A DNA stretch of 34,803 nt, from assembly GCA_021149145.1 (NCBI GenBank), contig GCA_021149145.1_4322.1; one strand, written 5' to 3'. The translations under genes and the position numbers were made by a program. Positions 2,168-30,518 of this stretch are shown here, piece by piece; positions within the stretch are counted from its first letter, which is position 1, and each line of letters begins with the position of its first letter. The notes beneath the pieces are model-generated. The model was not told where the DNA came from. It made no database searches and saw nothing but the letters and a program-made list of their open reading frames with translations. The DNA is from a phage.

Positions 2168-3112
2168 TTAGGGGTAGGTAATGCCCTTCAGTACTGATAC
2201 AGTTAGCGGCCTATAGATGATCAAGCCCGTCGCTTTAGAGGTTACCGGGTACTTGAAATGCAAATCCTTCGGCTGGCCAGGTAGCACGTTCGTCACTTCC
2301 GGAATCTCAATACTCAGGTTGAGCGGATTTTTTTCAAATGCCAGTGCAGCTTTGTTATTAGCACCGTCGTAGTTATCCAGGCATTGCAGATAACGCAGAG
2401 TGATGCCGGAGTTATTGGTTGCAAACAACTGCGCGTAGCTGATAGAGGTGTTCGGCACCAGTTCTTGCATCAGGCGGCGAGCGGAAGCAGGCAGCAGGAT
2501 ATCAGTCGCGGTGTGAGCACCATTGGTAGCTGTTTCGATAGCATCGATAAGCGCTGTGATATCAGTCATAGCAGTAGCCGCGGAGCCCCAAACATCAGTA
2601 GCAACAACCTGGTTAACGTTCGGCGCATCGAATACGCTAGGAATGCCGTGCGGTGCAGAGCCAGACCATACCAGTTTATCGAGCAGGTTGTCATGAGCTT
2701 CAAAAGCCAAAGCCTGTTTACGAGCTGACAGTGACTGACCAGTTGCTGCGCCAGCTTTGATTTCGTCGGTGGAAATAAGGAACGCGTTACCAAAACGGAA
2801 AACTTTGCCTTGCTTCTCGGTCATGAACGCATCAACCAGCGGAAGGTCATCAGAGTAATCAGCGATAATCTGTGCGATTGCCGTTCCGTCAAACTCAGGG
2901 TACTCAAAATACTTTGCATGGGCCGGGATTTCGTTAGTTACTGGGAAGATATTAACTACGGAGTTTTCCGGATATTCTGCTTCGTACGCACGCGCCAGGT
3001 TGGCGGTCAACTGCTTGACGGTCCAGATACCAGCAGCATCAGCTTTATCTACACCCATTTGCTCAAGGTGAGCGGTGATTTTTGCTTGTTCTGCATCAAA
3101 TTTAATGGCCAT
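2168..3112 (-). CDS. Major capsid protein
   Basis: 314 aa; follows scaffold and decoration-like genes; followed by a rho-independent terminator, the usual arrangement for a highly expressed capsid gene. Assigned by synteny and size. Confidence 0.7.
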   Translation of the reverse strand: MAIKFDAEQAKITAHLEQMGVDKADAAGIWTVKQLTANLARAYEAEYPENSVVNIFPVTNEIPAHAKYFEYPEFDGTAIAQIIADYSDDLPLVDAFMTEKQGKVFRFGNAFLISTDEIKAGAATGQSLSARKQALAFEAHDNLLDKLVWSGSAPHGIPSVFDAPNVNQVVATDVWGSAATAMTDITALIDAIETATNGAHTATDILLPASARRLMQELVPNTSISYAQLFATNNSGITLRYLQCLDNYDGANNKAALAFEKNPLNLSIEIPEVTNVLPGQPKDLHFKYPVTSKATGLIIYRPLTVSVLKGITYP

Positions 3113-4924: not shown

Positions 4925-5653
4925 TTATGACTCCCAATCCGGCACAGCCCAACAACGACAGCCGTATTCCTGACCAGGGAAGAGATCGTTACCGCCCAAC
5001 CTGAAGCTTAGGCCCTCTTTCTTGAAATGGGTCATTCGCTCCCTTTCATCAAGCATGCCGTGCCAAATGTAATGGGTAACACCAGCATCCTCTAGCCTCC
5101 TGCGCATGAACGTAGAGTTAATACTGGACGTGATGCCTGAGGCTATATTAGCAGTTCTCTTGCGGTAAATCTTGTACCTTTCGTTAATCTTAAGGTAGTC
5201 ACCACTCTGTATGATTGATGCAGACTGAATAAAGTCGTCCTTGATATTGTTGAGTAACTTTTCAACGGACTTATTTGATGTGTAAAGCCACTGGTTTAAA
5301 TCCGGCTGATACCAATCTTCATCTCCATTTATACCGTTAAGTCTCAAGTCCATAACTGACTGGACCGAGCCGCCACCGGTCTTGATTGCCAGCACAAGAA
5401 ACTGCGATGAATTATACCTGTATATTGACGCTCCAATTGCCGGAAGTGTAGCTACAACAGAAGCTATAAGCGCTGCTATGATTGCGTCGAGGTAATTATC
5501 TTCCTGCTCTAGCTCCTCGGCAGTGTCAATCTTAAGCCGCGTAGCTGATTCTTTCATTGCAGATATTAGCTCAGTTACCGCAACGCTAAGGTTGCGGTTT
5601 ACCTGATTCTCAATTGTCTGCGGGTACTTCCAGCGGGTCTTCACTGGTTTCAT
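4925..5653 (-). CDS. Minor head protein (Mu F / SPP1 gp7-like)
   Basis: 242 aa; directly downstream of portal; C-terminal GCRCW cysteine motif typical of Mu F-like head morphogenesis proteins. Confidence 0.6.
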   Translation of the reverse strand: MKPVKTRWKYPQTIENQVNRNLSVAVTELISAMKESATRLKIDTAEELEQEDNYLDAIIAALIASVVATLPAIGASIYRYNSSQFLVLAIKTGGGSVQSVMDLRLNGINGDEDWYQPDLNQWLYTSNKSVEKLLNNIKDDFIQSASIIQSGDYLKINERYKIYRKRTANIASGITSSINSTFMRRRLEDAGVTHYIWHGMLDERERMTHFKKEGLSFRLGGNDLFPGQEYGCRCWAVPDWES

Positions 5654-9608: not shown

Positions 9609-9617
9609 ATTATATCA
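9609..9617 (-). promoter_or_regulatory. Extended -10 element (TGnTATAAT) upstream of terminase small subunit
   Basis: Minus-strand TGATATAAT ~25 nt upstream of the ATG, directly after a terminator hairpin. Confidence 0.4.
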
Positions 9618-9628
9618 TATAGCAAACG

Positions 9629-9651
9629 AAAAAAGCCCTCAAGAATAGGGC
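9629..9651 (-). terminator. Rho-independent terminator upstream of terminase promoter
   Basis: GCCCT-(7-nt loop)-AGGGC with A6 on plus strand. Confidence 0.55.
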
Positions 9652-9893: not shown

Positions 9894-10086
9894 TTTTTAT
9901 CTTCCCGCTCTGATTGCTATAGTTTTGAGTTTCTCTTTCAAGCTCGAGATAACCTTTAATATCCGCGCTAACTGAAACCCCGCCAATCACACCCTTTAAG
10001 CATTTATGTTCACGGTCAAGTGTTGCGTTGAATTTTTGGGAAGTGCCGCTTTCAATATCTTTTACGATGATTGTTACTTTTTTCAT
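9874..10086 (-). CDS. Hypothetical protein (70 aa)
   Basis: ORF starting MKKVTIIVKDIE; immediately downstream of the tRNA gene. Confidence 0.45.
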   Translation of the reverse strand: MKKVTIIVKDIESGTSQKFNATLDREHKCLKGVIGGVSVSADIKGYLELERETQNYSNQSGKIKNAALGC

Positions 10087-10117
10087 TTAATCCCCCAGGA
10101 TTATTGGTTTCTTAATT

Positions 10118-10193
10118 TGGTGTTCCGCACTGGACTCGAACCAGTAACTAAGACTTAGGAGGTCTTTGCGTTATCCTGTTACGCCAGCAGAAC
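10118..10193 (-). tRNA. tRNA-Arg (anticodon CCU)
   Basis: 76-nt cloverleaf folded by hand: acceptor GTTCTGC/GCGGAAC (one G-U), D-arm GCGT-AACAGGATA-ACGC, anticodon arm AAGAC-CUCCUAA-GTCTT, T-arm ACTGG-TTCGAGT-CCAGT, discriminator A, encoded CCA. Confidence 0.8.
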
Positions 10194-10381
10194 AAATCCT
10201 TGAGTAGCGATTGCGCTATTGAGGGATTGCTGGTTACGCTTCCAGCGTCGAGTTCCTCGACCGATTTCGCCATATACGCTGCTTAGTGAGTTATGGACTT
10301 TGTGTTGCACTCCGTGCGCCGTTGCCACTTGGTGGCCTCGTCTGTCTACAGTTGTTAATGTACCAGTCAGGGTTAGATGTG

Positions 10382-10579
10382 TCAACTTACTCTTTCGAAT
10401 TTCCCATAATTCTGGTCATACGGGTAGTCAATGCTCACCAATTCGCCATTATCGCTGTAGCAGAATGCGTGGCCAGTCTTCGATACCTTTTCGACCTGGT
10501 AATCGCATCCATCCATGAAGTCATCCGATGCCGCCTTTGTGCACTTGATAGCATCGCCTTTCTTAATAATCTTACTCAT
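10382..10579 (-). CDS. Hypothetical protein (65 aa)
   Basis: ORF; start overlaps stop of upstream gene. Confidence 0.45.
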   Translation of the reverse strand: MSKIIKKGDAIKCTKAASDDFMDGCDYQVEKVSKTGHAFCYSDNGELVSIDYPYDQNYGKFERVS

Positions 10580-28064: not shown

Positions 28065-30518
28065 ATGGCAATTTATGACTTAGGAACAGCATCGCTAGCC
28101 TCAAATGGCGAGGTTACTGGCGTAGGTACTACATGGAAAGCACCTCTTACACTGATTCGTGTAGGTGCTACTATCATTTTCAAAACCAGCCCTCTGAAAA
28201 TTTACACCATCTCTGAAATCATCAGCGATACTCAGGTTAATGTTTATAATCCAAGTTCTGAAACTGTTCCCGCTGGTACTGGTTACGCAATTCTTGCTCA
28301 TGATGGAATTACTGTTCAGGGGTTGGCGCAGGATGTTGCGGAAACATTGCGTTACTACCAGTCAAAAGAGACTTCTATTGAAAGTCTACTGCAATTTATT
28401 GGTCAAGATACTTTTGATTGGCCTCGTCTTGAACAACTGGCAACTCAGTCAACTACCGGAGCTGCCGAGGCGCTTGCTAGTCAGATCTCTGCCGCTGAGA
28501 GTGCCTCTACAGCGGTAGGTGCTAGCAATAACGCACAAAATTCATATAACAGGACGGTTGCAGCAATAAATGCGGCTGGAAATACAGCGGCTGTTGCTTA
28601 CTTTGCTGATCACGGAATAGGTAGCACGACAACGCCATTTCTTACCTCTTTAGATTGGCAAACAATGCAATTTTGTTCCGGAGGTCGTTATCAGTGCACA
28701 CTTAGGGATATGTTAAACACCCCAAAAGAAATTAGTTCAATGTTTCCGGTTTCAACAACTCCTATTTGTATTGATGTTATTGCAACTAGGGGTGTTAATT
28801 CGGCTAGTGTATTAAGGTTATCTCCGTCTACTGGGTCAAACTCAAATTTTAGGATTGCAGATGTCACAATTTCTGGTGCGACTGGATCTAGGGTTTTTTA
28901 TGTAAGGGAAGCACTAAGCTTGCCTGGCGGTGATGCTGCAACTGGTGGAGCAAGCGCGTCAAGGGTTAGGGGGTTGCTTGATGTTTACTCAAAGGGTGAG
29001 GTGTTATCAATTTTAAATACAGATTCAAAAAAAAGCACATCAAGCTATGGCGGCTCAATATCTTCAGCAATAGAAACCGCTGGCGATGGCGGGTCGGTAG
29101 TTATAGGCCCGGGAACTTATGAGAGTAATAACTACTCCTTTGCTGGCAGGAACATATCAGGCTCTGGATATAATACCGTAATAAGTGTTAAACCTTTTGA
29201 AACCGGACTCACATCAACGCTATCGGTTCCGCACTGGAGGCAAAAGCATTTATCGGATTTGCAGTTTACAGGTACTGCAATACAAGGTAATAACGGCTTT
29301 CAATTCCCGGATGACCCTTATGCTGGAAGGGTTGTATTGGATAGGCTTTACTTCAATGACCTGGATGTTGGTATAAGGAAAAATGCTGGCAACATTGGAA
29401 ATACCTACAGAAACGTAAGTGTTAGAAATGCGAATTACGGGTATAGAGCAAAAGCTCATGACAAAATGCATATAGGATCGGACACTTTATACGGATACCA
29501 CTCAGATACAATCTCTCAATATTCAGTAATGCTAGATGCGACAAGCACAAGTAGCGCAACGAACCATGGCGCTGGAGGAATTGGTGGGTGGTGGATTAGG
29601 GATTCAATAATGGAGGACTCTGCTGGCGGCGGTATAAGGTTAAAGAATAAACCTGGAGATTGCCCAACATCACCTTGCGGATTGTCTAACGTATGGTTTG
29701 AAGCGATAGCAACTGGGGGAGCAGTTAACGTAGGTGAGGGAGCTGAACTCCCAAGGGTTTTGAAGCTCATCGATACGTCCGTTTTCTTTGCTGAGCATTC
29801 TTATATTAATAACATTGAGTTATCAAATTCAAACCTTGTAACTTATGGGTGCAGGTTTGATAACGCTGATGGGCGCCAAAGTTTCTCTCTTGATTCGAAC
29901 AGTATTATTTTTGCTAAGGATGCATACCTGAATGGATCTTCAACATCAAACGTTATAGTTGAGTCGCTGGTATCACAGACAGCCAAGATAACGGGTACAT
30001 CTGACTTATCTGTTAGAGGATATGTTACTAAAGGTCGAGTTTTTAATCCAGATTCCGGAACTGTTTTAGTCAGGAGGCCTTTTGGTACTGGTGGGAGCAA
30101 CTTTGGTGGAACAGCGTCGGCAAGTGAAGGTCCTGATACAAGGGGTATACACTCGCTATCATCTGGATACTACGAATTGCTTGGTGCGGCTCAGTACGAA
30201 TTGATAAATGGTGCCTTTAATATAACCGCTGGCAAATGGTATGTTTGGGGTATCTCTGCAAACAGAATTCAAGGTGGTGCTGATGGTGTTATCCGTATTT
30301 TTGGTAGAGCATCTTTAGGGCAGGTATTCACTGAGGGCGGTAAGTGGGTTCACACATTTGGAGTTGCTCAGGCTTCAGTCTCTGGCACTGCAAACCTGCA
30401 TATCAACCTTAATGGGCTACCTGGTATGGCATTAAGTCTTGCTGATTACTTCGTTGTAGAGTTCGATAACCAAAGAGACGCTTTAATATTTGCCAACTCA
30501 AGGATGGCGCTTCAATAA
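28065..30518 (+). CDS. Tailspike / tail fibre protein with probable beta-helix (depolymerase-like) domain
   Basis: 817 aa, GGAGA RBS; Gly/Ser/Thr/Asn-rich repetitive central region of the kind seen in right-handed beta-helix tailspikes; flanked by terminators. Confidence 0.55.
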   Translation: MAIYDLGTASLASNGEVTGVGTTWKAPLTLIRVGATIIFKTSPLKIYTISEIISDTQVNVYNPSSETVPAGTGYAILAHDGITVQGLAQDVAETLRYYQSKETSIESLLQFIGQDTFDWPRLEQLATQSTTGAAEALASQISAAESASTAVGASNNAQNSYNRTVAAINAAGNTAAVAYFADHGIGSTTTPFLTSLDWQTMQFCSGGRYQCTLRDMLNTPKEISSMFPVSTTPICIDVIATRGVNSASVLRLSPSTGSNSNFRIADVTISGATGSRVFYVREALSLPGGDAATGGASASRVRGLLDVYSKGEVLSILNTDSKKSTSSYGGSISSAIETAGDGGSVVIGPGTYESNNYSFAGRNISGSGYNTVISVKPFETGLTSTLSVPHWRQKHLSDLQFTGTAIQGNNGFQFPDDPYAGRVVLDRLYFNDLDVGIRKNAGNIGNTYRNVSVRNANYGYRAKAHDKMHIGSDTLYGYHSDTISQYSVMLDATSTSSATNHGAGGIGGWWIRDSIMEDSAGGGIRLKNKPGDCPTSPCGLSNVWFEAIATGGAVNVGEGAELPRVLKLIDTSVFFAEHSYINNIELSNSNLVTYGCRFDNADGRQSFSLDSNSIIFAKDAYLNGSSTSNVIVESLVSQTAKITGTSDLSVRGYVTKGRVFNPDSGTVLVRRPFGTGGSNFGGTASASEGPDTRGIHSLSSGYYELLGAAQYELINGAFNITAGKWYVWGISANRIQGGADGVIRIFGRASLGQVFTEGGKWVHTFGVAQASVSGTANLHINLNGLPGMALSLADYFVVEFDNQRDALIFANSRMALQ

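Follow-up and report, generated by a model that had tools for sequence, protein, structure and literature searches.

Positions 10118-10381 of a 34,803-nt stretch of phage DNA (GenBank assembly GCA_021149145.1, contig GCA_021149145.1_4322.1; hereafter the window) hold a tRNA-Arg gene with anticodon CCU on the minus strand and, upstream of it, a gap (10381-10194) that separates it from a series of small open reading frames (ORFs). The source phage is a T1-like coliphage of the family Drexlerviridae, subfamily Braunvirinae, whose nearest records are AN_ECEAS and ES (97% identity), and the ORF listing places every gene around the locus on the minus strand. The initial annotation had recognised the tRNA and proposed that the ~190 nt of unexplained non-coding sequence next to it might be a degenerate tRNA, a small RNA or a processing leader. 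The sequence proved to be non-coding; anatomically it resolves into a promoter, which the first reading had missed, and a leader. On strong comparative support from related genomes, this leader is an unannotated RNA element of the whole T1-like family. No leader RNA was annotated in any GenBank record inspected, and our search of the literature on T1-like phages found no description of the leader, of a non-coding RNA or of a transcript map. The locus is composed of the following features, listed in the direction of transcription.

10385-10380, minus strand: -35 hexamer TTGACA, from a promoter scan (10/12 matches, with TG)
10370-10357, minus strand: spacer motif CTGACTGG (10370-10363) and -10 hexamer TACATT (10362-10357), from the promoter scan
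10350-10337, minus strand: single-stranded 5' end of the predicted transcript, UGUAGACAGACGAG (family consensus CGUAGACAnAAGAG), with columns invariant or nearly so across subfamilies
10336-10324, minus strand: hairpin H1, GCCAC-CAA-GUGGC, followed by a conserved AAC; supported by covariation
10319-10307, minus strand: hairpin H2, GCGC-ACGGA-GUGC, with one G.U pair; supported by covariation
10298-10269, minus strand: hairpin H3, specific to Braunvirinae; RNAalifold, two compensatory pairs
10261-10247, minus strand: hairpin PK, GUCGAG-GAA-CUCGAC; minimum free energy (MFE) fold and relatives
10246-10229, minus strand: hairpin PL, GCUGG-AAGCGUAA-CCAGC, the last hairpin family-wide, with loop end C(C/G)GUAA; supported by covariation
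10228-10195, minus strand: hairpin PX, a two-part extra hairpin between PL and the tRNA; MFE fold and relatives
10193-10118, minus strand: tRNA-Arg(CCU) with encoded CCA; ARAGORN and the Rfam tRNA model RF00005

The minus-strand tRNA-Arg(CCU) of the initial annotation was recovered by ARAGORN, which placed the anticodon cct at position 35 within the seven-nucleotide loop CUCCUAA, and by RF00005 (58.9 bits, the gathering threshold being 29; E 8e-12); its encoded CCA appears as TGG on the plus strand at 10118-10120. The earlier failure to fold a second tRNA was borne out, as ARAGORN called none elsewhere in the window and Rfam none in the gap. A blastn search with the tRNA against 5,426 complete E. 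coli genomes returned no match. Its homologues are the tRNA-Arg(CCU/UCU) genes of other Drexlerviridae, in which the CCU and UCU versions share 85% mean column identity, and it is 97% identical to the tRNAs of the Rogue1 group, which occupy the same position upstream of TerS. All tRNA-bearing relatives examined within the group carry a tRNA-Arg at this place with anticodon CCU or UCU; it is thus the same gene at the same site as in Rogue1-like and Rtp-like phages, in a family that alternates between the two anticodons and of which the window has CCU. "1 arginyl-tRNA" has already been reported for Rogue1-like and Rtp-like phages (PMC4070988, PMC8421802), and the tRNA-Arg of the window is ordinary and known for its phage group; what is new is the family-wide leader RNA. 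Phage Rtp is said to be without this tRNA (PMC8421802). In its record (NC_007603; L005 968-1044) both ARAGORN and Rfam identify a tRNA-Arg(UCU) that is missing from the annotation.

The suggestion that AGG usage would be relevant was upheld. AGG accounts for 11.4 of every 1000 codons in the window ORFs and for 23% of their Arg codons; the figure for AGA is 8.1 per 1000, as compared with roughly 1-3 per 1000 for each of the two codons in E. coli. Because this usage is high relative to E. coli, decoding of AGG-rich phage genes is a plausible and likely role for the tRNA. The strongest AGG bias in the window belongs to an ORF of 816 amino acids on the plus strand (28065-30518), with AGG in 22 of its 36 Arg codons.

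The gap opens with the promoter. Its -35 box includes the TGA stop codon (10384-10382) of the upstream 65-amino-acid ORF, so that the intergenic DNA is fully used. With an extended -10 TG at 10365-10364 and a spacer of 17 nt, the overall arrangement is TTGACA-17-TGgTACATT (10385-10357), which predicts a near-consensus, strong promoter of the sigma-70 type. An equivalent promoter was called independently in vojen and VAC111. TTGAC or TTGCA is kept as the -35 element in all family members, and the motif CTGAnYGG lies immediately upstream of the -10 box in most subfamilies, the rest of the spacer being variable. A published re-annotation of TLS predicted just three sigma-70-like promoters, and the leader promoter is not among them (PMC11447400). 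In the Rtp-type promoters CTGAnYGG is shifted ~7 nt upstream, as though the -10 region had been duplicated. The conserved 5' segment was also considered as the -35 box of a second promoter and rejected, since inspection by eye revealed no -10 element at the right distance.

Judged from the position of the -10 box, transcription is predicted to start at ~10349-10350, giving a leader of ~157 nt that consists of a single-stranded 5' end and six hairpins, all visible in the single-sequence MFE fold. The 5' segment is unpaired in both the MFE and the consensus folds. The tight hairpin that had been placed at 10245-10262 is real and corresponds to PK; in relatives, the hairpin abutting PL has other stem sequences (GGCUG/CAGCC, GGUCG/CGACC or GAGG/CCUC). 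PX, whose 3' end lies 1 nt before the RNase P site of the tRNA, is common to AN_ECEAS, IMM-001 and TR3, and in ACG-M12/IME542 the inner stem differs (CUAG/CUAG) and the outer stem varies. A search of positions 10194-10381 with Rfam 15 (4227 covariance models) gave no hit besides the tRNA, even at E<=10, and on the gaps of ten relatives at E<=1 only tRNA was found.

Several short signals were compared with the leader by eye. ACUCAUUCAAA, located 3' of PL, matches rrn boxA at ~7-8 of 13 positions in Braunvirinae and Rogunavirinae, a likeness that was not seen in Tunavirus or Tlsvirus (AACAAUUCA, AACCAUUCA). The RfaH ops element was rejected, as CGTAGAC resembles GGCGGTAGnnTG only loosely and the variants CGTAAAC, CGTTTAC and CGTGAAC occur without GGTAG. 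Kissing between the H2 and PL loops was likewise set aside: ACGG/CCGU complementarity exists in some lineages and not in the window, Rogue1 or SECphi27.

The gap had been described as GC-rich and devoid of a convincing ORF. Its G+C content is moderately higher than that of the flanks (0.49-0.54 versus 0.35-0.45), and the single sense-strand ORF that overlaps it in the window runs into the tRNA. Short coding sequences have been annotated within the leader region of IMM-001 (two, one on each strand; L002 1537-1768) and in Rogue1 (Rogue1_0013, 40 amino acids; L009 1294-1416), from which one might suppose that the region encodes a small protein. Among close relatives, however, ORFs are not conserved in length, frame or strand, the differences in leader length are not multiples of three, and the substitutions are compensatory in stems rather than concentrated at third codon positions; most records, moreover, have no annotation here. 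Judging from these comparisons, the coding sequences of IMM-001 and Rogue1 are probably over-calls, and a protein-coding role is scarcely credible.

All Braunvirinae relatives were found to have a gap of 190-460 nt upstream of the tRNA, with no RNA annotation, and to share a promoter-proximal block of roughly 90 nt that is recovered by blastn and comprises H1, H2 and H3. RNAalifold analysis of 13 Braunvirinae sequences recovered the same three hairpins, and 4 of the 5 pairs of H1 are compensatory in this subfamily. A model of the Braunvirinae core (R1) scored 96.5 bits at 10268-10357 in the window and also gave weaker hits in the syntenic gaps of tRNA-less phages. These gaps follow the same design, namely TTGAC(A/G), CTGAnYGG, a -10 box, CGUAGACAnAAGAG, H1, AAC, H2 and a last hairpin with the loop end CCGUAA.

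To extend the comparison beyond Braunvirinae, IMG/VR was scanned with a degenerate pattern, which gave at least 120 stretches; together with the earlier leaders, and after a -35 filter, these yielded at least 76 distinct 5' modules. Among other IMG/VR probes, a TerS protein anchor found 3 loci and the exact H2 17-mer 9 contigs, and a 15-mer around +1 gave mostly chance hits. Because MAFFT mis-registers hairpins of unequal loop length, the pair counts rest on good-register subsets or on model-based alignments. In a plain, structure-agnostic MAFFT alignment of 19 sequences from non-Braunvirinae subfamilies, 97.7% of the H1 and H2 cells are paired, compared with 67% after shuffling and 20-54% for slid controls; 7 of the 9 pairs are compensatory, and the covariation score of 0.82 (against 0.25) was reached by none of 500 shuffles. 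A covariance model built from this alignment (R2), from which Braunvirinae were therefore excluded, was then run on the whole window with filters off, and its sole significant hit was 10303-10350 on the minus strand. R2 gave a single hit at each of 67 loci out of 70, and the phages that it recovered include several that had not contributed to it (HCF1, ESP2949-1, L021, T1 and LF82-11). Throughout the Drexlerviridae, T1 included, the leader occupies one and the same position in single copy, whether or not it is accompanied by a tRNA.

When 57 distinct sequences were aligned, 98.1% of cells were paired and 8 of 9 pairs were compensatory. For H1, all 4 modelled pairs are compensatory family-wide, with 97% of cells paired; for H2 the figures over the 57 sequences are 4 of 5 pairs and 98.8%, and its loop is semi-conserved (ACGGA, GCGGA, GCGAUA, GCGGUU) on stems that vary. 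Of the 76 distinct leaders among the matches listed plus the earlier leaders, 50 contain PL, whose stem takes 17 different forms. In 10 ungapped PL sequences 100% of cells are paired and 3 of 5 pairs are compensatory, with a covariation score of 0.61 (against 0.14; reached by 0/500 shuffles). Between subfamilies whose TerS proteins are ~45-55% identical, specific motifs are kept: the 5' segment, the AAC, the H2 loop, the PL loop CCGUAA and AUUCA. We accept the structure as real on the basis of this comparison with relatives and not of single-sequence fold energy.

The same data bear on whether the element could act as DNA, that is, as a pac site, an origin or an operator in which the hairpins are incidental or formed by the DNA. 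In favour of such a role, the DNA sequence is conserved at CTGAnYGG and around +1, GenBank entries for these circularly permuted genomes often begin near the region, and pairing of the opposite strand is nearly as good. Covarying stems with constant loops are nevertheless the signature of a folded RNA rather than of a duplex binding site, and G.U cells exceed A.C cells by 9 to 2. A pac site at the leader is contradicted by TLS, whose restriction-mapped pac end lies elsewhere (PMC11447400), ~8 kb from TerS in the numbering of the record, whereas the leader is situated just upstream of gp26 and ~0.65 kb from TerS. We regard a DNA-level element as very unlikely.

Downstream of the 5' module the leader differs greatly between lineages. 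The middle between this module and PL is hypervariable, ranging from none to ~270 nt of interchangeable hairpins, and the overall leader length ranges from 56 to 361 nt. The 3' ends fall into four arrangements.

Webervirus, leader of ~66 nt: H1, a GC hairpin often with a U-run, then the ribosome-binding site (RBS)
Hanrivervirus, Warwickvirus and Henu7-like phages, leader of 106-129 nt: a long PL hairpin, U4-8, then the RBS
Tunavirus (including T1), Tlsvirus and Nouzillyvirus, leader of 117-154 nt: PL, then AACCAUUCAGGAG (RBS)
Braunvirinae and Rogunavirinae, leader of 145-361 nt: PL, sometimes an extra hairpin, then the tRNA

The tRNA cargo always stands at the same point and consists of Arg(CCU), Arg(UCU), Trp(CCA)+Arg(CCU), Ser(GCU) or nothing. 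Cases were compared across L033, L044, L196 (LF82-11) and the pair L020 and L071, with switching between CCU and UCU taking place inside one homologous tRNA-Arg family; L033 carries Trp(CCA)+Arg(CCU), L044 carries Arg and a second tRNA-like call (ARAGORN "Val aac"), and L196 carries Ser(GCU). The leaders of L020 and L071 are near-identical, with 2 differences in the first ~75 nt, and a tRNA-Arg(UCU) follows PL in L020 and is absent from L071, indicating that the tRNA is an insertion into a pre-existing leader. As judged from these alignments, the leader is the older, conserved feature and the tRNA a lineage-specific add-on.

This arrangement also answers the earlier proposal of a degenerate tRNA, here taken to cover the decay of more than one tRNA gene within the 190 nt. 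Some relatives (L033, L044) do have a second tRNA in the same intergenic region, which would fit such decay, but the extra tRNAs follow PL and the hairpins are retained. Phages that lack tRNAs altogether have the same hairpins, the loop of PL is 8-10 nt long rather than 7, and ARAGORN and the Rfam tRNA model were blank in the gap at permissive thresholds in the window and 10 relatives. The degenerate-tRNA proposal was consequently abandoned as extremely improbable. The other part of that proposal, a small RNA or processing leader, pointed in the right direction and was understated, as the stretch comprises a promoter and a family-wide covarying leader that is independent of the tRNA.

One further locus has a bearing on the origin of the 5' segment. 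In L023, an unrelated 84-kb IMG/VR contig whose size is not that of Drexlerviridae, TAGTATTAATCACGTAGACAAAACGAGGAG (~5118-5149, minus strand), which covers the -10 box and the start region, is fused directly to an RBS and ATG, and the hairpins are absent. The conserved 5' segment may, on this sequence, have descended from an ordinary short 5' untranslated region with a Shine-Dalgarno sequence.

The leader and tRNA are followed by two small ORFs and a terminator. On the minus strand the order of transcription is: small ORFs ending at 10382, the gap (10381-10194), the tRNA (10193-10118), the 70- and 62-amino-acid ORFs, a terminator-like hairpin (9651-9635), TerS (9581-9057) and TerL.

10086-9705, minus strand: two small ORFs of the same unit, of 70 amino acids (phrog_16862) and 62 amino acids (phrog_2919)
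9651-9635, minus strand: intrinsic terminator closing the unit, GCCCUAUUCUUGAGGGC followed by U6
9617-9609, minus strand: promoter element of TerS, TGATATAAT, an extended -10

The 62-amino-acid ORF is conserved family-wide as the gene after the leader. Equivalent unit-closing terminators were found in all lineages examined: a strong intrinsic terminator precedes TerS in every one of them (window 9609-9651, minus strand; L003-L009, L071-L078), and 3' of it, ~35 nt ahead of the TerS start codon, lies an extended -10 promoter (TGgTATAAT). The T1 record annotates the terminator and not the promoter.

We consider it likely that the locus is the front of a small self-contained unit made up of a promoter, a conserved structured leader working as RNA and a tRNA cargo. 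From the sigma-70 promoter set inside the stop codon of the upstream gene, transcription would start near 10350 and proceed through the ~157-nt leader, the tRNA-Arg(CCU) and the two tiny ORFs to the terminator, the cargo being inserted between PL and the RBS of the first ORF. RNase P cleavage at the 5' side and trimming at the 3' side would presumably excise the tRNA from the primary transcript, and the same RNase P cut would free the leader as a discrete ~157-nt RNA. That the leader functions as RNA we infer from its comparative features. The stems are variable and the 5' segment, the AAC, the H2 loop and the PL loop are constant, as expected of hairpins that present their loops for recognition rather than of passive structure. 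In tRNA-bearing lineages RNase P would sever the leader from the message, and the leader is nevertheless kept and even enlarged; it would therefore have to act while being transcribed or once released, rather than as an operator of translation.

The reading we favour, tentatively, is a cis-acting co-transcriptional regulatory leader, in which the 5' segment and the H2 and PL loops would be recognised by RNA polymerase or a protein as they emerge, thereby setting termination in and expression of the small operon. The terminator-like hairpin located right before the first ORF in several lineages fits attenuation-type control of this kind. Several points weigh against this reading and against the broader proposal. 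The window leader has no hairpin followed by a U-run, the terminator seen in Webervirus, Hanrivervirus, Warwickvirus and Henu7-like phages, and attenuation therefore rests on those other lineages; even in Webervirus the U-tract is not always kept. Because TerS has its own promoter, the argument that late-gene read-through is needed falls away. Pfam matched none of the seven neighbouring small ORFs, the only genes covered, and the PHROGs that they hit are without exception of unknown function, so that no regulator was identified. The single-sequence fold energy is unexceptional (z -1.6). The 57-sequence alignment (A5) was fitted to the model and is biased towards structure, and the unfitted alignments (A4 and A9) are small. 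Pairing is modestly better on the sense strand (98.1%) than on the antisense strand (96.6%), with 9 G.U cells against 2 A.C, so the strand is assigned mainly from the promoter and the orientation of the genes. Lastly, where transcription starts, how the transcript is processed and whether a stable leader RNA forms are themselves deduced from sequence.

A second possibility, which we rate as somewhat doubtful, is that the leader is chiefly a trans-acting small RNA whose single-stranded 5' end serves as a seed for pairing with host or phage mRNAs. In their short versions the leaders are organised like classic enterobacterial small RNAs (a conserved 5' single strand, a hairpin and a GC-rich hairpin followed by a U-run), sequence conservation is highest in the 5' segment, and in tRNA lineages the leader is conserved and expanded even though RNase P would split it from the mRNA. 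Its 3' end might, with a similar degree of doubt, be made by intrinsic termination in Webervirus and some Tempevirinae, by RNase P in Braunvirinae and Rogunavirinae, and by RNase E at AUUCA after PL in Tunavirus and Tlsvirus. On the other hand, sites complementary to the 5' segment number 2 in the 34.8-kb window against 5.6 expected, none beyond chance; Tunavirus, Tlsvirus and Nouzillyvirus have no obvious 3' end determinant; the U-run is degraded in many Webervirus genomes; and the fusion of the 5' segment to an RBS and start codon in L023 suggests an origin as an ordinary short 5' untranslated region.

Untranslated leaders need protection from Rho, and it could be argued that the leader is only a promoter followed by a structured spacer that shields the transcript from Rho and RNases and presents the tRNA for processing. 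The patchwork of interchangeable hairpins in the middle, from none to many in leaders of 56 to 361 nt, would suit such a spacer. A passive spacer has no need of the sequence motifs that are kept across subfamilies, however, and the element is retained in tRNA-less lineages with very short leaders, which makes this explanation unlikely.

The leader was compared with several known systems. The put element of phage HK022 is an RNA-only processive antiterminator of ~70 nt with two long stem-loops, the first of which forms a triplex, in a phage that uses host RNA polymerase only (PMC9378689). The leader resembles put in having two hairpins in the nascent RNA directly after a strong promoter, within a 5' module from ~+1 to ~+45, and terminators downstream. 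It differs in that H1 and H2 are of only 4-5 bp within ~50 nt; there is no evident sequence similarity, and the leader falls outside the structural definition of put. Long-range read-through is, in addition, not needed here, as TerS has its own promoter, and processive antitermination as a requirement for terminase expression is weakened by the extended -10 promoter between terminator and TerS in all lineages.

The late leader of phage lambda at PR' includes 6S RNA, qut and tR', and Stx phages have tRNA genes just downstream of PR'. The present locus is similar in that a strong promoter of the constitutive type precedes a short structured leader, with a terminator closing the leader in some lineages and tRNA genes located in the same region. 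Unlike at PR', no Q-like protein was found among the neighbouring ORFs, the window leader lacks a terminator, and the unit consists of two tiny ORFs and not of a whole late operon. tRNAs are co-transcribed with mRNA or stable RNAs in the E. coli tyrU-tufB operon and in the tRNA cluster of phage T4, which contains RNAs C and D. As in those cases, the tRNA is embedded in a longer transcript from which it would be released by RNase P and RNase E; the difference is that here the non-tRNA part is older and more widely conserved and the tRNA optional, and the sequences are unrelated. In Webervirus and Hanrivervirus the leader is similar to Hfq-type small RNAs (5' single strand, internal hairpin or hairpins, GC hairpin and U-run), whereas the window version has no U-tail, would depend on RNase P for its 3' end and is followed by an ORF on the same transcript. 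A riboswitch differs from the leader in that no single conserved ligand-binding fold links the conserved parts, the middle being hypervariable. It is conceivable, although we hold the idea loosely, that the leader belongs to a new class of phage regulatory RNA, single-copy and with its own promoter, whose 5' segment and loops would be recognised by RNA polymerase, a phage protein or a target mRNA to switch the infection programme, and whose 3' boundary would serve as a tRNA capture slot.

T1 is one of the original Delbrück phages, and its transcriptional programme has so far largely been inferred from sequence. The leader with its promoter provides a testable regulatory element. Well above one hundred sequenced Drexlerviridae each have a single copy, among them T1, TLS, Rtp, Rogue1 and the Klebsiella weberviruses of phage therapy. 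The element accounts for where and how these phages carry tRNAs, at one fixed point in a leader predicted to be highly expressed, and suggests a natural insulated insertion site for payload engineering in T1-like phages. It also flags annotation errors, namely the spurious coding sequences in leaders and the unannotated tRNA of Rtp.

Two minor observations concern hairpins at or near the locus. A small hairpin, AAUCC-UGGG-GGAUU (window ~10086-10104, minus strand), overlaps the RBS of the 70-amino-acid ORF just after the tRNA, and its sequence is also kept 3' of the tRNA in Rtp, JulesPiccard and L017. A divergent member of the family on a 53-kb contig (L084, ~2189-2290, plus strand) consists of CGUUGGCAAACGAG, an AU-rich hairpin, then GGCAUCC-GUAA-GGGUGCC and UUUU, in which CCGUAA gives a tetraloop of the GNRA type at the top of a terminator-like stem.

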